A DNA stretch of 63,879 bases, the filler included, from Reclinomonas americana ATCC 50394 (Eukaryota), in NCBI GenBank assembly GCA_048213135.1. It is 14 parts of 14 records of this genome, joined end to end, with 100 filler letters (N's around TTAATTAATTAA, not from the genome) between each part and the next. Parts side by side here need not be neighbours in the genome. Positions count along the whole stretch, not along the records: positions 1 to 9,960 come from AFZH01018760.1; 13 more parts are not named here. One strand, given 5' to 3'. The first letter of the stretch is position 1; every line of letters begins with the position of its first letter. The translations under genes were made by a program, and so were the position numbers. The notes beneath the pieces were generated by a model. It saw only the letters and a list, made by a program, of their open reading frames with translations, was not told the DNA's origin and did no database searches. Positions 434 through 52,582 of the stretch are shown here, piece by piece.

Positions 434-2041
434 ATGAGGTTTGTGTTGAAACTGCTCCGTCCCACTCTCTCTGTTTACTAACTCTCACACAGTGGCCACC
501 GACAACCAGCCTTCGAACTCGCGACAAACGGCAGTGTAAAAGCACTGCGCCGACTGGTGGCGCGTGAGGGCGCACACACTCTCCTGCGGAAAGAGGAGAT
601 GACTGACAATAGCAGCTCGGCCTTCCATCGTGCCGCCGCCTACAGACAACCGCGTGTGCTGGAGTATCTGTGGGAGGAGAGTGGAGTCGGACCAGAACTC
701 GCCCAATTGGTCAACGACCACGGCTTGACGCCACTGATGGCGGCTGCTGACAAGGGCCACTACGATGTGGTCGAGTGGTTGCTGGAGGACGAGGAGAGAT
801 GCCCAGCAGAGTCGGTGATGGCGGTGACCAATGACCGTGATCCCGATCCGCAGTCCACTGCGCTGCATTTGGCTGCCTCGCACGGCTACGACGACATTGC
901 GCGGCTTCTTGCCACTGAGTTTCCCGAGCTCATTCCGCTCTGCAACAAGTCGGGCCGCACGGCGGCTCAGTGGGCACGCGACATTGGGAATCACGACTTG
1001 GCCAACAATCTCGATTGTTTGGCTGCAGAGACGCTGCGTGCGCTGCAGGAGCAGCAGCAAACTCCTCCGCCTGCAGGTAACTTTTTGCGGTCTCGTGCAT
1101 TATTGACTGCTGATTCGCGCTCACGATCATTGCCGCAGCACCGGTGCGACCGCTGCCTCTTGTTTTGTCGCATCTGCGTATTAACTCACGTTGCGTTGCT
1201 GTGCAGGTCGACGACTACGCCATGGCTCGTCAGGTCGCGCAACTGCAGCGCGATCTCGCCGCCGCGCAAGAGGAGCGAGAGCAAAAACAGCAGGAGTGGG
1301 ACCGACAGCGACGGGAGCTCGAAGACGTCGTCACGCAGACGCAGAGAACGAGCGCGGAGCTGCAGCAAGGCAACAGCCAGCTGCTGCGAGGCATCGCGGA
1401 CGGACAGCAGCTGATTGCGCATCTGCAGCGAGCGCATGCCAGCGAGCAGCAGACGAATGTGCAGTTGCGGAGCGCCAACTTGGAGTTGCAGCGGGCGCAT
1501 GCCGGCGCGCAACAAAAGGATGCCGAACTGCGACAAGCACGACAGCAAGTCGACCAGTGGCAGCGAACGTTTGCCGAATGCCAGCGGCGAGTGGATCACT
1601 TGGAGCGTGCCAGCGCGGAACAGCAGCAGGCCCACGCGCAGCTGCAGGCGGAGCGAGATCGAATCGCCTCGGAACTGACTGTGGCGTTGCGTGAGAAGGA
1701 CGTGCTCGCCGCTCAGCTGCGAGACAAGGAGCAGATTGTTGCGCAGCTGCGACAGGAGCTCCTTCTCAGCCAAGGTCTGGCTGATGCCCTCTGTCTTTTC
1801 TTTATGCTCATTCATGTCTCACCTGTTCTTTTGCATTCCACAGTCCACACTACCGTGCAGCGCTTCGAGTGGGCGGAGATTGTGCACGCCACCAACTCCT
1901 TCTCGCCGCGCCTCAAGGTCGGCGAGGGTGGTCAGGGTGCCGTTTTCATCACTCTGCTTCGCCAAATGCACGTGGCCATCAAGGTGCTCGATCCCGAGGC
2001 ACCGTGGACGATGGAGTCGTTTGAGAGTGAGGTCTGTATTA

Positions 2042-2087
<46 letters not shown>

Positions 2088-3961
2088 CTCCACGTTGTTA
2101 TTTTCCATGTCCCAGGTCGCCGCCCTCGGTCGTCTGCGCGATCGTCGCATTGTGCCTCTTGTCGGGTACTCGGTTGGCGACGACAAGGCACGCTGTTTGG
2201 TGTACAAGGCTCTGCAGTGCGTTGTTAGGGCCGTCTCTCTCTCTCTCTTTGTCGCTCCACCGTTGTCTCATTGTGAGAACCCACAGAGTTCCCAACCTGG
2301 AGAATATGCTTCTGCTGCCACGCGCCGGTCGTGCGCCGCTCACGGTCGTGCAGCGTGTGCAGATTGGTCTCGGACTGGCCGAGGCTGTGGCGTTCTTGCA
2401 CGAGGTTTGTGCGGTGTGGAGGGCTCGCATTCTCCTTCTGAGTTTCTGTTTCTCTCTTTCCTCTCCCCACCCCATTGAATGGGCGCTGTGTGTGTATATC
2501 GCGTTTAGGATGTGGATGATTTCGCACTTATCGTCGCAAACGCTTCTTGCCTTCGCACACTGCTTCTCCTCCTTGACAGTGAGTTTTGCGAGGTTTCTCT
2601 CCTCTTGCTGCTCACTCGCTGAGCATTCTCGTGAGCTCTTCACTTTTCCTTTCACTCCCTCGATGCAATCCTTGCTTCCTCTCCCGATCTCGTATGTGTC
2701 TGCCCTGTTTCACGTACGTATACGTAGTGTTATTACATCGGTTGTAGCGCGCTTTTTTCTTTCGCACTCACGTTCTCTTTCTCAAGAGAGAGAGAGCTTC
2801 TCTTTTCTAAAAAGTCCTCGGAGATCATTTCTGCGCTACTTGATAACTCGTTACTCTCATCTTCACTCTCCTCGCCTTCCTTTCTCCCCGCTGTTTGTCT
2901 CTTTTCTCTTTCATTCCCCGCCAGTATTGTCTCACTCCATTCTTCTCACTCTCCTCGCCTTCCTTACTCTCGTGTACGCGCTGTTTGCTCTCCTTTTCTT
3001 TCACTTTCCGCCAGTGTTGTCTCGCTTCATTCCTCTCACTCTCCTCGCCTTCCTTACTCCCCGCTGTTTGCTCTCTTTTCTCTTTCGTTCCCCGCTAGTA
3101 CTGACTCACTCCCTTCCTCTCACTCTCCTCGCCCTCCTTACTCCCCGCTGTTTGCTCTCTTTTCTCTTTCATTCTCCGCCAGTATTGTCTCGCTCCAGTC
3201 TTCTCACTCTCTTCGCCTTCCTTTCTCCCCGTCTACGCTGTTTGCTCTCTTTTCTCTTTCATTCCCCGCCAGTGTTGTTTCACCCCCTTCTTCTCATCTC
3301 CTCGCCTTCCTTGCTCCCCGTTTACGTACTTCTGTGCCACTCACGATTCTCTCTGCATTGCCACCCAAACTCTATTTTCTCTTTCTCTCTCTCTTCCTTC
3401 CCCTTCCCTCACTCTCCTCCCTCCTCGCAGAACAATGTCATCCACCGCGACATCAAGCCCTCGAACGTGCTTCTCGATCACCGCCTGGAGCCGTGCCTCG
3501 GTGACTTTGGCATGGCGCGGTCGATTGTAGGCGGCACGGTGTGCTTAAAGCCATTTGCCTCTTTCTCTCTCTTGGCCTCTTGATCGCCTCTTCTTATTGC
3601 CTCTCGCCTCTCGCAGACGACGATCGCCGCCGGCACGCTGGACTACATGGACCCGCTGGCATTGCGTGCGCGCCGTCCACTGCCCAAGCACGACGTCTAC
3701 AGCATGGGAATGGTGCTGGTGCAGCTCGTCACTGGCAAACCGGTGGCCTCGGTGGGCGAGTGGTCCGAGGAGTGGCACGAGTCGCCAGAGTCGCTGCGTG
3801 TAATGGAGCTGGTGGATGTCGGGGAGGGCGTGGAGTGGACGCCGCGCGTTGCGGAGCCGATGTTTGCGCTCGGCATGCGGTGCATGAGTTTGCAGGCGAA
3901 TCGACCGACGGCGCAGGAGGTGCTCGAGGTGATGCGCGGTGTGCGGGAGGTGTGTGGGTAG
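434..3961 (+). CDS. Ankyrin-repeat / coiled-coil / RLK-Pelle(IRAK)-type Ser/Thr kinase, paralogue 1 (multi-exon)
   Basis: ATGAG|gt at 434-438, acceptor at 492. ANK motifs TPLMAAADKGH and TALHLAASHG. Gln/Glu-rich heptad region 1207-1773. Kinase motifs FEWAEIVHATNSFS-KVGEGGQGAV, VAIK, FESEV, HRDIKPSNVLLD, GDFG, GTLDYMDP, DVYSMG, RPTAQEV. Stop TAG at 3959-3961. GT-AG introns join the exons in frame, including a 5-nt micro-exon at 1139-1143. Confidence 0.9.
2886..3320. repeat. Intronic minisatellite, about 5 degenerate copies of a ~83-90 bp pyrimidine-rich unit
   Basis: Recurring unit cgctgtttgctctcttttctctttcattccccgccagtattgtctc...ctcactctcctcgccttcctt inside the long kinase intron of paralogue 1. 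The matching intron of paralogue 2 is short and lacks it. Confidence 0.85.
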
Positions 3962-4418
3962 ATTGTAAAGAAAGGAGTGATGTATTAGTCGCGATGGAGA
4001 AGTCGAGGTAGCAGGAGCTGCGGCTCGGCAAAGACAATGTGCATTCGATGGTGGATCGTGGCGTTGTCTGCATGTCGCCAGAACCAGTGACGAGAGCGGG
4101 AGCCAGGTGAATTTCACCATGCCTTCGATCTCAAACGTCGACTTTGTGCCCGACGTGTGATGGAGGGTGTGATAGAGAAGGAACTCGACTCCAGAGTCTC
4201 CTGCAAACTCACGTCTCAACAATGCATAACTTCGACGTTGCTTCGTCATCTGATCGACAACAATGAAGGACACGGAATAATCCGACATCGATCTGACAAC
4301 GAGCTCTCAAAACCGTCTTCAAAGAGAACGCTGTTGTATTCGTGTGTGTGTGTGAGAGAGAGAGAGTGCGAGTGCGGTCTGAAGTGTATCTGTTTCCGCA
4401 AGTGTTGGAGTTAACAAG

Positions 4419-5639
4419 ATGAGGTCTGCGCTGTGTGCACTGCGCTTTGTCGAAATGCGTTCTCTCACTCGCTCTCACTCTTTGCGCAGTGCTCGTTGGA
4501 AAAAAGCATGGGTGATAGGCCTGGATGGTGATGTGCAGGCACTGTATGAATTGGTTACGCGTGAGGGTGTAAGCATTCTGCTTACGAGAGAGGAGATGAC
4601 TGACCGTGGCAGCTCGGTGTTTCTCACTGCCGCTCTCAAAGGTCATATCTCGGTGTTGGAGTACTTGTGGGAGGAGAGTGGCGTGGGGCCACAACTCGCA
4701 CAAATGGTCAATGACTTTGATTGGACACCACTCGCGGCAGCTGCCTTCGGAGGGCAATTGCCAGTGGTGGAGTGGCTGCTGGCCGATGAGCGACGATGTC
4801 CGCCAGAGATGGTGCGGGCGGTCACCAATGATCGTGACGACTACCCACAGTTCACCGCTCTGCATTATGCTGCCGTAAATGACCGCGAAGCCATTGCGCG
4901 ACTTCTTGCCACTCGCTTTCCCGACCTCATCACCGTGGTCAATAAGGAGGGCATGACGGCGGGCCAGTGGGCACGCGAGTATGACAAGCAGCACGTGGCT
5001 GAGTTGCTCGATTGCATCGCTGCGCAGCCACCACCACGCCCACCACAACAACAGCGGTCTCCTCCACCTGCAGGTAACTCATTGTCGTGTTCGTTGGTTG
5101 ATTCGTGCTCTCATCTTCGTGCTGTTCTCTGTTTGTCTTGCCTGGGAAACTCGCAACTCCAGCCCGGCAGGTGAGATCCTCTGCTCATCTTTCTCGACCT
5201 TGGGTGTTGGTCTTCGTCTTCTCACTAGTTTCGTTGGCGATTGAGCAGGTTGACGACGATGCCGTGGTTCGTCAAAACGCACAACTCCAGCGCGATCTCT
5301 CAGCAGCACAGCAGGAGCGAGAGCATCAGCAGCGAGAGTGGGACCGTCAACGACAAGAACACGAGGACATCGTGGCACAACTGCAGGAAACCAACGCTGA
5401 ATTGGAGCGAGTACATGCAAGCGAGCAACTCCTTGTTGCACATCTTCGGCAAGCGCTTGCTGACAGTGAACAGCGAGTGGATCAATGGAAGCAAACCCAC
5501 GGCCAGCTACAGGCTGAGCGAGATCAAATGACTTATCAGCTGACTGTGGCTTTGCGTGACAAGGACGAACTCACCTTGCGGCTTGCAGAAAAGGATCAAC
5601 TTATCTCCCAGCTTCGACAGGGTCGACTTCTCGCACAAG

Positions 5640-5710
<71 letters not shown>

Positions 5711-7074
5711 TGGGTGTGGGTGTGGGTGCTCACTAGCGGTTGTACTCTACGTGTGTGTCTGTCCGACTTACCTTCACTCTCTCGCATCGTGAACAACGCA
5801 CCAGCCGACACCGCGATACAGTGCTTCGAGTGGCCGGAGATCGTGCAAGCCACCGACTCCTTCTCCCCACGCCTCAAGGTCGGCGAGGGCGGCCAAGGTG
5901 CCGTCTTCATCACTCTGCTTCGCGAGATGCACGTGGCCATCAAGGTGCTCGACCCCAATGCACCGTGGACGATGGAGTCGTTTGAGAGTGAGGTCTGTTG
6001 TACTGTCACTCTCTCTCTTATTTTCTCCTCATGCTTCTTCTCTCTTCTCGCAGGTCGCCACCCTCGGTCGTCTGCGCAATCGTCGCATTGTGCCTCTTGT
6101 CGGCTACTCGGTGGGCGACGACAGGGCACGCTGTCTCGTGTACAAGGCCCTGCAGTGCGTTCTTGTCTTTCTCTCTCCTTTCTTTCTCCATTGTCATCTC
6201 ACTGTTGTATCACACAGAGTTCCCAACCTGGAAGACATGTTGCTGCTGCCACGTGCCGGTCGTGCACCACTCACGGTCGTGCAGCGTGTGCAGATTGGTC
6301 TCGGACTGGCCGAGGCTGTGGCGTTTTTGCACAAAGTTTGTGTGATGTGAACAGTCTCATGATTGTTCTTTGCTTCTGCACAAGTTAGTTTTCTCTCCGT
6401 CGCATGCTGTTCTTGTCTCTCCCCGTCTCTCGTGTTACCCTCTCCCTAAATCCCTCTTGCACCTCTTACAATCCATGAGCGATTCCCAACACGACTCAGG
6501 GGCAGCGCTTCTTCACTGATTCTCTTTCTTTCACCGCCTTACCTCGCAGAACAACGTGGTGCACCGCGACATCAAGCCCTCGAATGTGCTTCTCGATCAC
6601 CGACTGGAGCCTTGTCTTGGTGACTTTGGTATTGCGCGGTCGATTGTTGGTGGCAAGGTGTGTTGGTATCAATGCGTCTCTCTCCCGATCACATCCTCTT
6701 ACCCTCTCGCCTCGCAGACAACTGTTGCTGCCGGCACGCCCGACTACATGGACCCACTGGCGATGCGTGCACGCCGTCCACTGCCCAAGCACGACGTGTA
6801 CAGCATGGGTGTGGTGCTGGTGCAGCTCGTGACTGGCAAACCGGTGGCCACGGTGGGCGAGTGGTCCGAGGAGTGGCACGAGTCGCCAGAGTCGCTGCAT
6901 GTGATGGAGCTGGCGGACTCCAGTGTGGAGTGGACGCCGCGCGTTGCGGAGCCGATGTTCGAACTCGGCATGCGATGCATGAGCATGCTGCCGAATCGAC
7001 CGACGGCGCAGGAGGTGCTCGACAGGATGCGGGTCATTCGCGAGGCGTGTGGGCAGTTTACGTTGGAGTTGTGA
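4419..7074 (+). CDS. Ankyrin-repeat / coiled-coil / RLK-Pelle-type kinase, paralogue 2 (multi-exon)
   Basis: Same exon layout as paralogue 1: ATGAG|gt at 4419, ANK exon to 5073, 8-nt micro-exon 5163-5170, coiled coil from 5249. Kinase HRDIKPSNVLLD, GDFG, GTPDYMDP. Stop at 7072-7074. Confidence 0.9.
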
Positions 7075-7727
7075 AGAAGGCATGATCTCCGTGGTTGTTC
7101 TGAGAAATCGACACTTCTCGCCGGCGGCAATAATCGTGTGCTGGCACATACATAATCTCGGTGTCTGCATTTCGCCGGTTCCATAGTCAACCTGTGCGGG
7201 AGAGTAGGAGCTGCATTTTGTGAGCGATGAATCTCAGCTTCAGAGTCCCTTCCACGACGGTCGTTGCAGACCACGACGTCGCGTTCAGCATGCCTCTCAT
7301 ATGGGTCCAAAACTGAGGGGCACTCGGAATAATAAGACTGAGTCTCCGAAGCAAGTTAGAGACTGCTCTGCTCGTGAGTCTTGCACCACAATGCATGCAG
7401 TGCACAGAAAACACGACGTCGACGTCAACGACGCCGTGTCTGTCTCGACAAGTATGCACGACACTGAAACCCACACCAGTGAGTGAGTCTCTGCTCAACA
7501 GTGAGTGAAACAGAACTAAGGACCTATCCCCGCTGTCAACAGTGCGGCATCAGCACGACGTCTGGTCGTCTCTGACAAGATTGCAGGACACAAAAGACAC
7601 GACAAAACTTGTCGGCGCAGAGAAGACAGCGTGGAGTGCGTGTGTGCGTGTGTGCGTGTGTGCGTGTGTGTGCGTGCGTGTGTGTGTGAGAGAGAGAGAG
7701 AGGCAGTGACAAGCGCCCACCCAAGAA

Positions 7728-9801
7728 ATGAGCTCGAGGTCTGTCTTTTCCCCGTTGTCAGAATACCTTCATCTCCCTTCCCCCTCATCCCTTCCCCCTC
7801 ATCCCTCATCCCTCCCTCCCTTCCCCCCTTTCCCTCTTCAGAAAAAAAGCCCACGAACTCGCCGCCGCCGGCAACCTCAAATCCCTCCGCAAGCTCGTCA
7901 CCCGCAAAGGCGCCCACACCCTCCTCCAACGCGACGAGATGAGCAGCGGAGGCGGCTCGGCCTTTGACTGGGCCGCCCAGCACGGCCACCTCCCCGTACT
8001 CGAGTACCTCTGGGAGGAGAGCGGCGTCGGCCCGCAACTCGCCCGCCTCGTCAACGACCTGGGATGGACGCCATTGATGGAGGCCGCCTACAATGACCAC
8101 CTGCCAGTGGTCGATTGGCTGCTGGCCGATGCGCGACGGTGTCCGCTGGAAATGGTGCTGGCCGTGACCAATGAGCGCTCGTTTGATCCGCAATCGACGG
8201 CGTTGCATGTGGCCGCTGTGAAGGGACATGAGGCGGTGGTGCGGCTGCTGGCCACGAGGTTCCCCGAGTTGATGTCGATGATGGATGCCAAGGGGAAGAC
8301 GGCGGCGCAGAGGGCGCGCACGAATAGTAAAGTGCACGTGGCCGAGTTGCTGGAGCGGCTGGCTCAGCCACCACCGCCACGTGACCAGGAAGGTGAAGGT
8401 GCGGTGTTGTTGTCTGATGCTATTCTTGTTTTCCGCTGCTCACTTTTTTCCCTTGGATTTGCAGGGGCGACACGGCAGGTGAGAGTCCTTCTCCTCCTTG
8501 CTCTTCACGTTCGCAGACTCTCCTTCGTGTCTTGTTCTTTGCCTGCTCTTTTCGGAGATTTTTATCGTGTCTCTTCGTTTTCTCCTCCCTCCCTCCTCCT
8601 TCTCCTCCATCTCCTCCTTCTCCTCCTTCTCCTCCTCCTCCTCCTCCTCCTCCTCCTCCTTCTCCTCCTCCTCCTCCTTCCCCCTCTCACTTCCCTTCGC
8701 AGCCCCCACCTGACGACTCGCATCTCGCACTCATCGCCGACCTCCAACGCGACCTGGCCGCCGCGCAGCAAGAGCGCGCCCAACAGCAGCTGGAGTGGGA
8801 CCGACAGCGACGAGAGCACGAGGACACCATGGCGCAGCTGCAACAGGCCATGGCCGACCTGCAGCACGGCAACGCGGCGGGGCAGCAGCAAGTCGCGCAC
8901 CTGCAGCGTGCGCTGGCCTACGAGCAGCAGAAGAACGCCCAGTTGCAGCGCACCAACTCGGAGCTGCAGCAGGCGCACGCCGGCGAGCTGCAGAGGGATG
9001 CCCAGCTGCATCTAGCGCAGCAGCAAGTCGCTCAACTGCAGCGTACGGTCGCCGAAAGCCAGCAGCGAGCGGATCAATGGCAGCGAGCCAGCGCGGAGAA
9101 GCAGGCTGAACGAGATCGAATCGCCGCGCAGCTGACAGTGGCGTTGCGCGACAAGGACGAGCTCGCCGCGCAGAATCGGGAGAAGGAACATGTTGTCGCG
9201 CAGCTGCGACAGGAACTCCTCCTCGCGCGAGGTCTGCCTCTCGCTGTTCATCTTTTGCATCGCCTTATTCTCACTTCGCTGCAGTTCACATCTCGGTGCA
9301 GCGCTTCGAGTGGGCGGATATTGAGCAGGCCACCAACTCATTCGCGGATGACCTGAAGGTCGGTGAGGGCGGTCAAGGCGCCGTTTACATCTGCGATCTC
9401 CAGGAAGCCCATGTGGCCATCAAGGTGCTTGATCCCGAGGCCCCGTGGACGATGGAGTCGTTTGAGAGTGAGGTCTGCCTCGTCCTTTTCTGCTTCTTCT
9501 CTCTTTCTGCTCATCTGTCTCGCAGGTTGCCACTCTCGGGCGCCTGCGTGACCGTCGAATTGTTCCTCTCGTTGGCTACTCGGTGGGCGACGACAGGGCA
9601 CGGTGTCTCGTTTACAAGGCCCTGCAGTGCGTTGTTCATCGCTCTCTCAGTCTCCATCATTGCCTCACTTAAAAAGCACGCAGAGTTCCCAACCTGGAAG
9701 ATCTATTGCTGCTTCCAGGCGTCGGTCGTGTGCCACTCTCTGTCGTGCAGCGTGTGCAGATTGGTCTCGGATTGGCGGAGGCTGTGGCGTTCTTGCACAA
9801 G
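7728..9801 (+). CDS. Ankyrin-repeat / coiled-coil / RLK-Pelle-type kinase, paralogue 3 (3' part lost in the gap)
   Basis: ATGAGCTCGAG|gt at 7728, ANK exon from 7842, 14-nt micro-exon 8465-8478, coiled coil from 8703. Kinase N-lobe FEWADIEQATNSFADDLKVGEGGQGAVY and VAIK through AVAFLHK. The HRD/DFG exons are not present before the gap at 9961. Confidence 0.85.
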
Positions 9802-9830: not shown

Positions 9831-9870
<40 letters not shown>

Positions 9871-9874
<4 letters not shown>

Positions 9875-9960
9875 CGTACGTACGTACGTACGTACGTACG
9901 TACGTACGTACGTAACGTACGTACGTACGTACGTACGTACGTACCGTTACGTACCTACGT
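9871..9960. repeat. (TACG)n run at the contig end, possibly a sequencing artefact
   Basis: About 20 TACG units directly after a (CT)n tract and directly before a gap. Confidence 0.7.
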
Positions 9961-10060
9961 NNNNNNNNNNNNNNNNNNNNNNNNNNNNNNNNNNNNNNNN
10001 NNNNTTAATTAATTAANNNNNNNNNNNNNNNNNNNNNNNNNNNNNNNNNNNNNNNNNNNN
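9961..10060. other. Artificial scaffold gap with six-frame-stop linker (1 of 13)
   Basis: Identical 44N-TTAATTAATTAA-44N spacers at 9961, 12913, 20388, 22393, 25139, 31587, 32920, 35837, 38904, 48213, 55246, 59379 and 62111. Confidence 0.98.
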
Positions 10061-10107: not shown

Positions 10108-10582
10108 GTTGTATTCTCCACGGCATACACTGCGATTTTCATCATATCACCAAAGGTGAGTTCTTTTGTTGCCCGTCGACTGCTTGTCGTTGATGAACTC
10201 ATCACGTGCTATCTCATCAGACGGCCGATCGAGTCGTCGGCTACCTGGAGGAGGAGGCCATTCACAGCTACACCGAGTTTCTGAAGGACATTGAGGAGGG
10301 CATCATTGAGAATGTTCCGGCGCCCGAGATTGCCATTGTTGCGTCGCGTCGCGTCGTGCAGTTGGCCCCCCCTCCCCAACTCACACGTGTTTTTTGATGC
10401 AGGCCTACTGGCGCTTGCCAGCGAATGCCACGCTGAAGGACGTGGTGATTGCCGTGCGCAGCGACGAGGCCGGTCACCGTGACGTGAATCACTTGCGGGC
10501 CAATTATCTGGAGGCCGGCAAGGTCGACGAGGCTGCGCCGCTCGGCCCGCACCCCCAAGTGCCGCCGGAGAAGATTTTGTAG
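10108..10582 (+). CDS. AOX: Alternative oxidase, last three exons (5' part missing)
   Basis: Exons 10108-10155, 10221-10337 and 10403-10582 give ...[30 protein letters not shown]...[36 protein letters not shown], which contains the AOX di-iron motifs LEEEA and DExxHRDVNH. Confidence 0.93.
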
Positions 10583-10998
10583 GCCGTTGCAGCAGCTGAT
10601 GGTCATGCTCTCTCGTTTGCCCTCCTAATTCACTGTCGTTGCAAAAGTGGAGAGTGAATCCTGAATAGACTATTAAGGTGACAAGAGTCTCTCTTTCTTT
10701 GGAAGAAGGCCAATGTCTTCCCCTTCTCCTCCGCCTTCCCGCTTAGCCCTTCTCCACTTGTCCTTCTCCGTTCCTCTTCTCCCATCTGCCCCTTCCTCCT
10801 TCTCTATCCCCCTTTCCCTTCCCTATTCTTTCCCCTTACCCTTCCTATTCTCCTTCCCCTTCCCCTTCTTCCTTCTCCCATTCTCCCCCTGCTCCCCCTT
10901 CCCCTTCTCCTTCCCCGCTTCTCCGCCTTCCCCTTCCCCCACTTGTCCCATGTCCGTGTTCAGAAATTTTTTTCGAACGCACTTTCCACAAGCGAAAG

Positions 10999-12195
10999 AT
11001 GCCACTCCTCCTCCCCCTTCGCCATCGTCGCCGCCGTGGCCCCCTCGCCGGCGGCGGCTGCTGCTCTTCCCACTCCTCACCACCCACTCTCCCACGGCCT
11101 CCTCCCGCTTCTCCATCGCAGCCACCACCACCAACAAGGTCAGGAGAAGCATACGAGTGGCACGCCATGAACGCCTCCTCCGACCCACGCTCTCCCTTCC
11201 CCACCAGCTTCACCTCCGTGGCCGTCACAAGCGACGCGCAGCACATTATCTGCGGCAGCGTGGACGGCTCTGTGCATGTGTGGTCGACATCAACTGGTCA
11301 ACTGGTGCGACGCTGTGTGGGCCACACGGGCGAGGTCAACGCAGTGGCCGTGGTGCGTGGCGAGGAGAGCGAGGAGGGTGCCAGCGCAGGCGAACAGCGA
11401 TTCGTCAGCGCCTCCAGCGACAAGACGTTGCGCGTGTGGTCGCTCGCCACCGGACAAACAGTGCGCACTCTCGCCGGCCACGACGGCGCTGTGACGTGCC
11501 TGGCCGCCTCACGCGATGGGCGACTCGTGGCCAGTGGGTGCAGTCGGCCGGAATTCGGAGTGCGCTTGTGGGGCGCCACAGGAGGTGCGCCACGACCGCC
11601 GGCGCTCTACCTGCTCACGGCGCACACCAACACCGTGACCGCTGTTGACATTTCGCGCGACAGTCGCCTGGTCGTGAGCGGGGGCGCCGACTGCATCGTC
11701 AATCTGTGGTCCGTGGCCACGGGCGATATCGTGTGCTCGATTGGTGACATGGATCGAGCGTGCGCCGTGCGCGCTGTGGCGTTTTCGGGAAGCGGACATT
11801 TCGCGTTTGTCGGCACCACTGCTCCCGCGGTGGAGGTGTGCTCGGTGCCAGGTGAGCAGGAGGAGCAGCAGCAGCAAAAGGACGCGTCCGACGGGGACGA
11901 CGACGAGCTGGCCGCCGTGCACCAGCTGCCGGGCCATAGCCATGGAGGAACGCTGTGCATGGCGGTGAGGGAGGACGGCCGCATGCTGGCCACAGGTGGC
12001 GCCGACGGTCGCTGCGCGGTGGTGTCGCTCGCCACGGGCGAGGTGGTGAGCAGTGTGGACCACAACGAGTGGGTGATGGGGGTGGCGTTCACGCCAGAAG
12101 GCCGTCACGTGGTCACCTGCAGTCGCGACTGCACAATTCGAGTGGCGCGAGTGGACAGCGGGCTGGTGGAGAGGGTATTAGAGTCGGCGGGGTAG
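10999..12195 (+). CDS. WD40-repeat beta-propeller protein with diverged repeats (start codon uncertain, 10999 or ~11167)
   Basis: About 7 WD repeats (GHTGEVNAVAVV, SASSDKTLRVWS, GHDGAVTCLAAS, AHTNTVTAVDIS, TCSRDCTIRVAR) in one long exon. Confidence 0.85.
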   Translation: MPLLLPLRHRRRRGPLAGGGCCSSHSSPPTLPRPPPASPSQPPPPTRSGEAYEWHAMNASSDPRSPFPTSFTSVAVTSDAQHIICGSVDGSVHVWSTSTGQLVRRCVGHTGEVNAVAVVRGEESEEGASAGEQRFVSASSDKTLRVWSLATGQTVRTLAGHDGAVTCLAASRDGRLVASGCSRPEFGVRLWGATGGAPRPPALYLLTAHTNTVTAVDISRDSRLVVSGGADCIVNLWSVATGDIVCSIGDMDRACAVRAVAFSGSGHFAFVGTTAPAVEVCSVPGEQEEQQQQKDASDGDDDELAAVHQLPGHSHGGTLCMAVREDGRMLATGGADGRCAVVSLATGEVVSSVDHNEWVMGVAFTPEGRHVVTCSRDCTIRVARVDSGLVERVLESAG

Positions 12196-27929: not shown

Positions 27930-29056
27930 ATGACAACCAAGGTGCGCTCACTTGTGTGAGGAATTCGTGTGTGTGACTGCTGTTCTCTTTGTGCGCGTCT
28001 CACTATGTGACACAGGTCTTGCGGGGTCAAACAGACGCTGTGAAGTGTGTCACCATCACTCCCGATGGCCAACACATCGTGAGCGGCGGCTCTGACGGAT
28101 CGGTGATAATGTGGTCACTCGTGAGTGGAGAACAAGTGCGACGGTTGGAGAGGCACGCTGGATGGGTGACCTCCGTCGCTGTCACTCCCGATGGCCAGCA
28201 CATTGTGAGCGGTGGCATGGATAAGACAGTTCGAGTGTGGTCTTTGGCAAGTGGCAAGGAGGTGCGACGACTCGAGGGACACACTGCATACGTGTGGTGT
28301 GTGGCCATGTCTCCCGATGGCCTGCACATTGTGAGTGGTGACTTGCACAAGACCATTCGCGTGTGGTCCCTCACGAGTGGGGAACAAGGGCGACCGTTGG
28401 AGGGCCACACTAGCGTGGTGTTCTCTGTCGCTTTCACGCCGAATGGCCAGTACATTGTCAGTGGCAGCTGGGACGGCACAATTCGAGTGTGGTCCGTTGC
28501 GAGTGGGGAGGAAGTATGGCTGCTGGAAGGGCACACTGAGAGAGTGTGGTCTGTTGCCATCTCTCCCGACGGTCAGCATGTTGTGAGCGGAGGTTCTGAC
28601 AAGACAATACGATTGTGGTCGCTGGCGAGTGGCCAAGAAGTGCGACAGCTGAACGGCCACACCGATGCAGTGCTGTCAGTTGCTGTCACTTCCGATAGTC
28701 AGTACATTGTCAGTGGCAGTCGGGACAACACGGTGCGGGTGTGGTCACTGGCGAGTGGGGAACAAGTGCGGCGGCTTGATGGGCACACTAGCTTGGTGGT
28801 CTCCGTCGCTGCTGCCCCCGATGGCCAGCACATCGTGAGTGGCAGTCAGGATAAAACGATCCGTGTGTGGTCCACGCCGCGTGGGCTGGCGCGGCAAGAG
28901 CTTGCGGCCGCGCAATCAGCTGTGCTGGCCATCAACGAGCTGCTTGCCGAAGAAGATGACTGTGACTGGATCCTGGTCGACGTTGTGCTGCGGTGCTTCG
29001 TGTTGGAGGATGCAGAGGTGATTGAACGCCGTGCGCCTGGATGGTGCTGGACGTAG
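27930..29056 (+). CDS. WD40 array copy 3 (type B, complete, 7 repeats)
   Basis: ATGACAACCAAG|gt...acag|GTCTTGCGG, seven 126-nt repeats, C-terminus STPRGLARQELAAAQSAVLAINELL..DWILVDVVLRCFVLEDAEVIERRAPGWCWT*. Confidence 0.92.
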
Positions 29057-35398: not shown

Positions 35399-38300
35399 TC
35401 AGCAGGCGGTCTTGCACACTCCCGTGCAGCACTTGAGATTCGGAAGGCACTGCACATTGGCGCACGGACCGCATTTCAGCGGATCATTGGTCGGTGCCAC
35501 GCATGATCCGCTGCAGCAATTGGGTGCCGACAGCGGGCACACGTGTCCGCATGTGCCACAATTCTTGGCGTCTGTGGCGAAGCTCTGGGTATTGACGCAG
35601 ACGCTGTTGCAGCACGACTGGCCTGTGGGGCACGTCTTGCCACATGTGCCGCAGTTGCTGGCGTTGCTGCTGAGATTGGTGCAGACGCCGTTGCAGCACG
35701 ACTGGCCAGTGGGGCACACGTTGCCGCATTTGCCGCAGTTCTTGGCGTCCGTGGCGAAGCTCTGGGTATTGACGCACAAGCCGTTGCAGCAGACCTGACC
35801 AGTGGCGCACGTCTTGCCACAGGTGCCGCAGTTGTTNNNNNNNNNNNNNNNNNNNNNNNNNNNNNNNNNNNNNNNNNNNNTTAATTAATTAANNNNNNNN
35901 NNNNNNNNNNNNNNNNNNNNNNNNNNNNNNNNNNNNGGCGTTGTTGCTGAGATTGGTGCAGACGCCGTTGCAGCACGACTGGCCAGTGGGGCACACGTTG
36001 CCGCATTTGCCGCAGTTCTTGGCGTCGGTGGCGTAGTTGCTGATCGCGTAACACACGCCGTTGCAGCAGTCCTGGCCGGCGGCACACGTCTTGCCACAAG
36101 TGCCGCAGTTGCTGGCGTTGCTGCTGAGGCTGACGCACTTGCCGTTGCAGCACGACTGGCCAGTGGGGCACACGTTGCCGCACGAGCCGCAATTCTTGAC
36201 GTCGGTGGCGTAGTTGCTGATCGCGTAACACACACCGTTGCAGCAGTCCTGACCGGCAGCGCACGACTTGCCGCAAGTACCACAGTTACTGGCATTGTTG
36301 CTGAGATTGGTGCAGACGCCGCTGCAGCAGGCGCGACCGGGAAGGCACTGCACATTGGCGCACGGACCGCACTTCAGCGGATCGTTGGTCGGTGCCACAC
36401 ACGATCCGCTGCAGCAATTGGGTGCCGTCAGCGGGCACACATGCCCGCACGTGCCACAATTCTTGGCGTCCGTGGTGAAGCTCTGAGAATTGACGCAGAC
36501 GCCGTTGCAGCACGACTGACCGGTGGCGCACGTCTTGCCACAGGTGCCGCAGTTGCTCGAATCGCTGTTCATGGAGACACACTTGCCGTAGCAGCATGAC
36601 TGGCCAGTGGGGCACACATTGCCACACGAGCCGCAGTTCTTGCTGTCAAACGTGAAGGCGCTGGGGAAGACGCACAAGCCGTTGCAGCAGACCTGACCGG
36701 CGGCGCACGACTTGCCGCAGGTGCCGCAGTTGGTGGCGTTGTTGCTGAGATTGGTGCAGACGCCGTTGCAGCACGACTGGCCGGTGGGGCACACGTTGCC
36801 GCATTTGCCGCAGTTCTTGGCGTCGGTGGCGTAGTTGCTGATGGTGTAACACACACCATTGCAGCAGTCCTGACCGGCGGCGCATGACTTGCCGCACGTG
36901 CCACAGTTGAATGGATTGTTGCTGAGGTTGACACACTTGCCGGCGCAGCACGACTGGCCAGTGGGGCACAAAAAGCCGCATTTGCCGCAGTTCTTGGGGT
37001 CCGTCTGCATGCTGAGCACACTGGTGCACACACTAGCGCAACAGGCATCTGCCGGACCGCAAATCTTGCCACACGCGCCGCAGTTGCTGAGACTCGAAGT
37101 CAGGTCCGTACACGCGCCTCGGCAGCATGCTTGAGGGTTCTGTGGGGAAATGAAGAAGAAGAAGGTGGCAAAGAAGGGGCAATGTACGGTAGATGAATGA
37201 GATTATGGTCATGGGAGGGAGATTGTCATAGGCAACGAACAGCAGCAGCAACGCAACGGGGCAAACTTTATCGCACGTGCCGCAGTTGTTGACATCGTGG
37301 AGGAGGTCCTGGCATAGACCGACGCAGCACGTCAAGGACGCCGCGCAGGCGTTGGCGTTACAGAGCACTGCGCATTAATTCAAGGATATTATTCATAATG
37401 TCATAGCGGCACCACGAATACACAGCGTCACTCACACTGTGCCTCCACTCGGAGTCCGGTGCCATAAGTGTCATTGTGGATTTTCACCGACAGCACATTG
37501 CCGGCCTTGGGGAGCCATCCATTCACCGTCACCCACAAATGGCTTGACAGCGAGTACGAGTTGGTGAGTGACCACGCGGGATAGGGCACGGTTATTAGAT
37601 CAGTGGTGCCGGCAGGCGTCAGTTGCACAAAGGCGGTCGTCGAGGCTGGAACGGAATCTCCCTCCAGTCGAATCTGCAGGATCGCTGTGCCTTGACTGTA
37701 CCCCGTCATGTCAAAGCTGGTGGTGTACTGCAACGTCTTGTCATTCCACGCAAAGGGAGCCGTGCTGCTGCTGGCTGTGCGAGAGAGGCAAAGGGATATC
37801 GATGGGGAAAGAGAGAGAGAATGGTTAAGAAGAGATCGAGAAAGATAAAGAGAAGGAGGAGCATAGAGATACGTATACAGAGACAGACGGGAAGACTGAT
37901 ACTTACAGAGAGACACGCAGACAGACAGAGACCGACAGGAGAGAGAGATAGAGTGCAAGATCGAGAGAGAAAGGGAAGTGAGAGCACAGAATCCGATCTC
38001 GACCACTCACATGGAGTCACCCACGCAGAGGCCGCAGAGGCAGAGTCCCAGCAAATGGTGCTCGAGCCGTCAGAGTAGCACAGCGAAGGGTTGCTAACGA
38101 AGGCCTTGGTGGTCTGGCCGTTCACAGTGACACTCCAATGGTCGTCCTGCGAGTACGTGACGCCAGTACCCACCGGCGGCGCAATGGACGTCCCCTTGAA
38201 GCCAGTGGAGATTTGCCTGACCGGCAGAGGCACACCTGGTCACATAGAAAACAGTTTAAGAAAGGGCTCGACATGGTGCGCGGCTCCGTCCGCCATTTAC

Positions 38301-44195: not shown

Positions 44196-52582
<8,387 letters not shown>

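Follow-up and report, generated by a model that had tools for sequence, protein, structure and literature searches.

Ankyrin (ANK) repeats are combined with TKL-type kinases in ILK, TNNI3K, RIPK4/ANKK1, DAPK and the plant ANK-kinases. The proteins described here are encoded on the first contig (1–9960) of a stretch of Reclinomonas americana DNA (the window, 63,879 nucleotides in all), which carries three head-to-tail ANK-kinase paralogues, all on the + strand. They differ from the proteins just named in domain order, repeat number, coiled-coil linker and kinase subfamily, and none of these surfaced as a close relative in our protein searches. In the Reclinomonas proteins a coiled coil stands directly before the kinase, as in plant U-box/RLCK-IX kinases, and, compared with IRAK/Pelle/RLK proteins (TKL group), an N-terminal ANK domain replaces the death domain, the transmembrane/ectodomain part or the U-box. 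The ANK domain has the size and fold of the designed ankyrin repeat protein (DARPin) N3C, and the positions randomised in DARPin libraries are those that vary most here. It differs from a DARPin in being a natural protein, in that turn 15–18 and position 10 are also variable, and in its strongly conserved outer face. The tankyrase ARCs (3tws, 5bxo, 9qfc), five-repeat units with a peptide-binding central groove, are likewise among the best fold matches; however, they are 23–25% identical to the ANK domain here, and tankyrases are PARP enzymes, not kinases.

A further likeness is to the ANK repeats of fungal NLRs, in which, according to the excerpted text of Dyrka et al. 2014 (PMC4986451), a recognition module is joined to a constant signalling part and positive selection acts on the same pattern of sites. 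The fungal proteins in that excerpt have internal repeats with a likeness of at least 85%, a polymorphic number of repeats and a NACHT/NB-ARC core. The Reclinomonas paralogues, in contrast, have a ratio of nonsynonymous to synonymous substitution (dN/dS, omega) of 0.455 at the concave face, and a kinase output. Highly similar internal repeats and repeat-number variation are both absent, the repeats being 13–35% alike and five in each copy, and Pfam scans of the three ANK exons and five other exons (four from copy 1 and the final one from copy 2) contained no NACHT/NB-ARC core. Among the papers listed by a literature search on ANK domains with RLK/Pelle kinases in protists, none was seen to describe the ANK-coiled-coil-kinase architecture.

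An earlier sequence-only reading of this DNA had proposed DARPin-like diversification of the ANK binding face, each paralogue binding a different ligand and giving the same output. We give an even chance to a related but more restrained reading, that these are three functional, lineage-restricted ANK-coiled-coil-kinase paralogues whose ANK faces are different but constrained and whose history is mosaic. The locus would then encode three head-to-tail cytosolic kinases, each with a DARPin-sized ANK domain, a coiled coil of ~130–190 residues and an IRAK/Pelle/RLK-type kinase. Protein divergence would be focused on the ANK beta-turns, the exposed inner-helix positions and the helix-helix turns, with purifying selection holding the buried framework, the outer helices (a patch in the first repeat, R1, above all) and the kinase. 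The ANK grooves may each recognise a protein partner that differs somewhat from copy to copy, the coiled coil may pair or cluster the molecules, and a near-common kinase would deliver the output; from the sequence, different ligands with a common output are plausible. The groove differences would be old and now maintained, with no ongoing arms race, and by its silent sites the kinase half would be much younger than the ANK exon, the coiled coil having a third history. Seen as a whole, this is a new, lineage-restricted family of ANK-coiled-coil-kinase proteins whose paralogues have diverged in an ordinary way. If the grooves do bind different partners, the family would be a compact natural case of ankyrin recognition tuning with a shared IRAK/RLK-like output.

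The exon models were built by hand from reading frames, GT-AG sites and the concordance of the three copies, and are thus inferred from sequence. They share one plan, with a tiny first coding exon, an ANK exon, a micro-exon, a helical exon and five kinase exons. The features are as follows.

434..3961, + strand, predicted gene of paralogue 1 in full (ATG 434, stop 3959–3961)
493..1076, + strand, ANK exon of paralogue 1, with five repeats (N-cap, R1–R3, C-cap/R4)
1207..1774, + strand, paralogue 1 coiled-coil exon, 189 codons
1844–2031, 2116–2216, 2287–2404, 3431–3538 and 3617–3961, + strand, paralogue 1 kinase exons
4419..7074, + strand, predicted gene of paralogue 2 in full, exon structure as in copy 1
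4490–5073, + strand, paralogue 2 ANK
5249–5639, + strand, paralogue 2 coiled coil
5805–5992, 6054–6154, 6218–6335, 6550–6657 and 6718–7074, + strand, paralogue 2 kinase exons
7728..9801, + strand, paralogue 3, 5′ part, the remainder lying beyond the contig end (9960)
7842–8392, + strand, paralogue 3 ANK
8703–9231, + strand, paralogue 3 coiled coil
9285–9472, 9526–9626 and 9684–9801, + strand, paralogue 3 kinase exons
434–438, 4419–4423 and 7728–7738, + strand, predicted first coding exons (5, 5 and 11 nt)
1139–1143 (5 nt), 5163–5170 (8 nt) and 8465–8478 (14 nt), + strand, putative micro-exons at the ANK/coiled-coil junction
656–694 (copy 1), 4653–4691 (copy 2) and 7996–8034 (copy 3), + strand, VLEYLWEESGVGP patch, 13 residues, R1 outer helix and following loop

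The first coding exon reads ATGAG in copies 1 and 2 and ATGAGCTCGAG in copy 3. The micro-exon of each copy is a piece bounded by AG and GT which, as judged from the sequence, would mend the frame where a phase-1 donor is followed by a phase-0 acceptor. According to tblastn, ANK copies in the window number exactly three. Every frame is open, and whole-domain omega is 0.16 for ANK, 0.29 for the coiled coil and 0.18 for the kinase; these are therefore functional genes, and pseudogene status was rejected. We also rejected the possibility that copy 3 had been cut down by mutation, since its last kinase exons are missing because the contig ends at 9960.

The ANK domain is recognised readily by Pfam, with Ank_2 bit scores of 69.6, 54.1 and 65.6 for copies 1, 2 and 3 (cut-off 27.3; E = 3.5e-19, 2.4e-14 and 6.4e-18, respectively) and an Ank match for copy 1 at E = 3.4e-16. 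An AlphaFold2 model built on a four-sequence alignment has a predicted local distance difference test (pLDDT) score of 94.4 and five helix pairs, predicted at residues 6–11/15–25, 43–49/53–61, 80–87/90–97, 123–129/133–142 and 157–163/167–183. In Foldseek the closest solved folds to the model are the five-repeat DARPins 1mj0, 5fin and 5oyj, with TM-scores of 0.68–0.75 relative to the query; DARPin E3_5 and tankyrase ARC4 are among the best, and the probability is 1.00 both to DARPins and to ARC4. Consequently, "DARPin-like" is a fair description of the size and predicted fold, with the qualification that a ~16-residue insertion holding a short helix lies between R2 and R3 and that the R1–R2 linker is also longer than in a DARPin. 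The repeat number is five in every copy, and identity among the repeats of one protein is 13–35%, which argues against repeat shuffling.

The sequence-only reading had compared short strings from aligned repeats, and all of them (FHRAAAY/FLTAALK/FDWAAQH, DHGLTPLMAAADK/DFDWTPLAAAAFG/DLGWTPLMEAAYN, PDPQSTALHLAASH/DYPQFTALHYAAVN/FDPQSTALHVAAVK and QWARDI/QWAREY/QRARTN) are present in the translated exons. The repeats were registered to the canonical 33-residue ANK module, and HMMER alignments to ankyrin-1/2 gave an identical register independently. We defined the face as positions 2, 3, 5, 13, 14 and 33, which we take to be the positions randomised in the original DARPin design paper. The concave face is indeed where variation concentrates. 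Among the three copies, 20 of the 23 library-position columns are variable, compared with 75 of the 151 in the rest of the ANK domain (Fisher p = 0.00065) and 11 of the 22 at exposed positions of the outer helix (p = 0.011). The variable sites thus cluster; a scatter over the domain, which would have undermined the original proposal, is not observed. When P0072, a 154-residue protein derived from an expressed sequence tag (EST) and 62% identical to copy 1, is added, the ranking of classes is the same, with mean residue states per column of 2.59 for the face, 1.53 for the outer helix and 1.73 for the rest. Positions 5, 10, 13 and 14 vary in all four repeats, and positions 6, 11, 12 and 23 never vary. 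The chemistry of the faces differs as well: copy 1 is acidic, copy 2 is rich in aromatic residues and copy 3 leans towards basic and polar ones, with 1, 6 and 2 aromatic residues, respectively, in the 23 face positions.

Rates of protein change were estimated with our own GY94-type codon model, fitted on a three-taxon star tree with shared branch lengths. Omega is 0.455 for the face, 0.118 for the rest of the domain and 0.111 for the exposed outer helix, and likelihood ratio tests separate the face from the rest (p = 1e-8) and from the outer helix (p = 1.5e-5). The dN/dS of the concave face is therefore above background, as the first proposal had required. Subdivided by structural class, omega is 0.51 on the inner-helix surface, 0.32 in turn 15–18, 0.24 in the beta-turn, 0.07 on the outer helix and 0.014 in the buried inner helix. 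The face thus changes at about four times the rate of the remaining positions, yet more slowly than neutral sites would. Omega above 1 was not found at the concave-face codons, for which the class value is 0.455, in a comparison of three near-saturated sequences with low power; in fact, face omega is significantly below 1 (p = 0.018), and positive selection is thus not supported. What survives of the proposed diversification is that the changes are clustered and faster than background; diversifying selection is the part left without support. A face omega below 1 fits faces that are constrained but different better than it fits free drift.

The most conserved exposed surface lies on the opposite, outer side. 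The protein sequence of VLEYLWEESGVGP is unchanged across the three copies and P0072. A hand count on the three DNA strings gives silent differences in 9 of its 13 codons, which indicates that conservation acts on the protein, and the patch is probably a shared interaction surface. The outer helices had been described as nearly identical, and this holds for VLEYLWEESGVGP, which is invariant, and for RLLATxFP, which is present in all three copies, but not for VVEWLL, which is VVDWLL in copy 3. The same description had been extended to the kinase exons of copies 1 and 2 and is overstated there, identity per exon being 84–95% in protein and 87–92% in DNA.

The apparent contrast between a diverged ANK domain and a conserved kinase must be read against the silent sites. 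At codons for identical residues, silent differences amount to 41–56% in ANK versus 17–29% in the kinase (Fisher p = 5e-5, 0.004 and 8e-5). The silent branch lengths estimated by maximum likelihood are as follows.

ANK: copy 1 1.07, copy 2 0.76, copy 3 0.95
Coiled coil: copy 1 0.23, copy 2 0.52, copy 3 0.42
Kinase: copy 1 0.12, copy 2 0.12, copy 3 0.37

A model with equal silent branch lengths across domains is rejected (p = 8e-11), as is one in which the lengths for ANK, coiled coil and kinase are proportional (2dl = 25.7, df 4, p = 3.6e-5). The kinase unites copies 1 and 2, and in the coiled coil the copy-1 branch is short and copies 1 and 3 are nearest. Within copy 2, GC content at third codon positions (GC3) is 0.58 in ANK and 0.48 in the coiled coil (4491–5638) versus 0.61–0.82 in its own kinase exons, a drop in the 5′ half that is not seen in copies 1 and 3. 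The genes are thus mosaic, most likely through conversion between neighbouring genes in the 3′ part and escape of the ANK exon. Because whole-domain omega is similar in ANK and kinase and silent divergence is ~4 times greater in ANK, the ANK domain taken whole is no less constrained than the kinase but is far more diverged, at sites of every kind. The non-proportional branch lengths and the fourfold silent gap together imply that the contrast is largely mosaic history; history, in the form of gene conversion or of unequal rates, accounts for it no less than protein-level selection does. The main added value of this analysis is accordingly a caution, namely that the picture of a variable sensor and a constant kinase comes largely from unequal silent-site history and not from selection on the sensor.

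Several points weigh against the reading of constrained, functionally different faces on mosaic genes. The face positions are those generally given for DARPin libraries, and residues were allotted to the faces from their place in the repeat and not from exposure measured on model coordinates. The randomised residues named in the excerpt of PMC3602593, which does not give the full list, are consistent with positions 2, 3, 5, 13, 14 and 33. The helix-helix turn 15–18, which holds no library or canonical binding position, varies in 16 of 16 columns, so that the difference first ascribed to the beta-turn and first helix is real but is shared by a further element. The silent branches of ANK, at ~0.8–1.1 substitutions per codon, are near saturation, which makes omega and the test of omega below 1 soft, and three genes with one partial protein are too few for site models, so that positive selection at single sites would be undetectable. 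As for the mosaic, intron identity is 0.61–0.78 versus 0.51–0.61 for shuffled sequence and is alike in both gene halves, the introns being short and pyrimidine-rich. The ANK/kinase silent ratios of 1.7–2.4 are roughly proportional and also fit a higher ANK silent rate without conversion; for this ratio alone, silent change that is locally faster in the ANK exon may be an alternative.

The main rival holds that there is relaxed constraint only, the groove drifting without a ligand role and the conserved outer side with its R1 patch doing the work as the real working surface, by contacting a shared partner or making an intramolecular contact. We regard this as possible, if somewhat doubtful. It draws on the face omega of 0.455, which is not above 1, on the variability of the non-binding turn 15–18, and on the location of the most conserved exposed surface on the outer side, with its 13 invariant residues encoded by codons of which 9 are silently changed. 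In addition, the excerpt of PMC4308713 states that its library positions were picked for highest entropy in natural ANK repeats, so that, as far as this text goes, variation there is the default expectation. The pattern is in this sense what paralogous ANK domains often show. On the other hand, the significant departure of face omega below 1 (p = 0.018) argues that the positions are not free, and the 6 exposed aromatics among the 23 face positions of copy 2 would be more in keeping with an interface than with a drifting polar surface.

A more ambitious version of that reading, which we consider unlikely, is a protist receptor-kinase array in which ANK sensors are kept different, the kinase is repeatedly homogenised by conversion, and one pathway is fed. 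If true, it would represent an independent invention of variable-sensor/constant-output signalling, with ANK replacing the leucine-rich repeat (LRR) ectodomain or the death domain, and it would bear on how IRAK/RLK-type modules acquire sensors outside plants and animals.

Ongoing positive diversifying selection, as in an arms-race receptor family, seems to us quite improbable. The face sites are ~4 times faster than the rest, a tandem array with a homogenised signalling half resembles immune-receptor clusters, and the same site pattern is positively selected in the fungal NLR ANK repeats of the PMC4986451 excerpt. However, not only the face (0.455) but every structural class of the ANK domain has an omega below 1, and pairwise face dN, at 0.77–1.24, is not above the domain dS of 0.91–2.3. 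The 13–35% identity of repeats within a protein speaks against shuffling, and very large databases yielded only the three copies and one outside relative. Finally, a purely historical account, in which the kinase halves were recently homogenised and ANK divergence is age alone, agrees with the equal whole-domain omega (0.16 vs 0.18) at silent lengths differing more than 4-fold, with the non-proportional branch lengths (p = 3.6e-5) and with the GC3 break within copy 2, but is very unlikely, as age alone fails to explain why, within the ANK exon, the face outpaces equally old outer-helix sites fourfold.

The kinase appears to be of the IRAK/Pelle/RLK type and is an active-looking RD kinase by its motifs. 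GxGxxG, VAIK, HRDIKPSN and DFG are all readable in the translations of copies 1 and 2, and in copy 3 the N-lobe motifs alone (GxGxxG and VAIK) are readable before the contig ends. Kinase exons 4 and 5 have weak Pkinase matches in Pfam. When two exons were compared by sequence with PDB entries, a plant lectin RLK, IRAK4, a LysM-RLK, CERK1 and IRAK1 matched best (E = 5e-6 to 1e-3, from exon-sized queries and not from a tree), and SYMRK, BIK1 and BRI1 are also among the best matches to kinase exons.

The middle exon of copy 1 is predicted to form a single unbroken helix over residues 2–188 (187 residues; pLDDT 93.9). Its hydrophobic period is 3.50, a signal that 1000 shuffles matched 0 times for copy 1, 31 times for copy 2 and 14 times for copy 3, which points to a coiled coil; Pfam gives weak matches only, to coiled-coil families. 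With 130 codons, the coiled coil of copy 2 is shorter than that of copy 1 by 59 and than that of copy 3 by 46, so that the spacing from ANK to kinase differs among the paralogues.

The family appears to be nearly orphan and lineage-restricted, judging from database searches. An exhaustive search of representative proteins gave 22071 matches at E ≤ 0.001, of which the 150 listed are mostly giant multi-repeat proteins, and among these 150 P0072 alone aligns as one stretch. Because P0072 is EST-derived, the family must be transcribed somewhere. A search for near relatives found nothing but P0072 among 425 candidates, and the last kinase exon, used as a query, had no match at E ≤ 1e-6 among 253 candidates. 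In the longer length class of database proteins (the shorter class was not searched) there are 39 generic ANK proteins, none with a listed protein-kinase Pfam family. A metagenome scan with the ANK alignment produced 136 pattern matches, 0 of them confirmed.

The window consists of 14 contigs joined by N44-TTAATTAATTAA-N44 spacers, and neighbours across spacers are not truly adjacent. The first spacer is at 9961–10060, and there are 12 further spacer sites in the window. Six more long open frames on the other contigs are without a Pfam match. Other-contig proteins recognised by Pfam matches include an alternative oxidase fragment, two WD40 propeller proteins, a protein with eight STIG1-like cysteine-rich stretches, a fungalysin (M36) metallopeptidase fragment and a ketoacyl synthase, with coordinates 10197–10397, 10747–12195, 27977–29056, 35889–37202 (− strand), 45707–47179 and 58391–59362.

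The DNA is eukaryotic in character, with short GT-AG introns that frequently open with CT or GT microsatellites. Dinucleotide arrays of CT/GT (2045–2081, 5641–5728 and 9832–9871) lie no more than ~15–30 nt past donor sites in all three copies, in different introns, and (CT)n and (CGTA)n arrays occupy 9832–9960, just before the end of the first contig. The third kinase intron of copy 1 contains an 84-nt minisatellite (5.3 copies, 81% matches) at 2863–3320, because of which it measures 1026 nt, versus 214 nt in copy 2.

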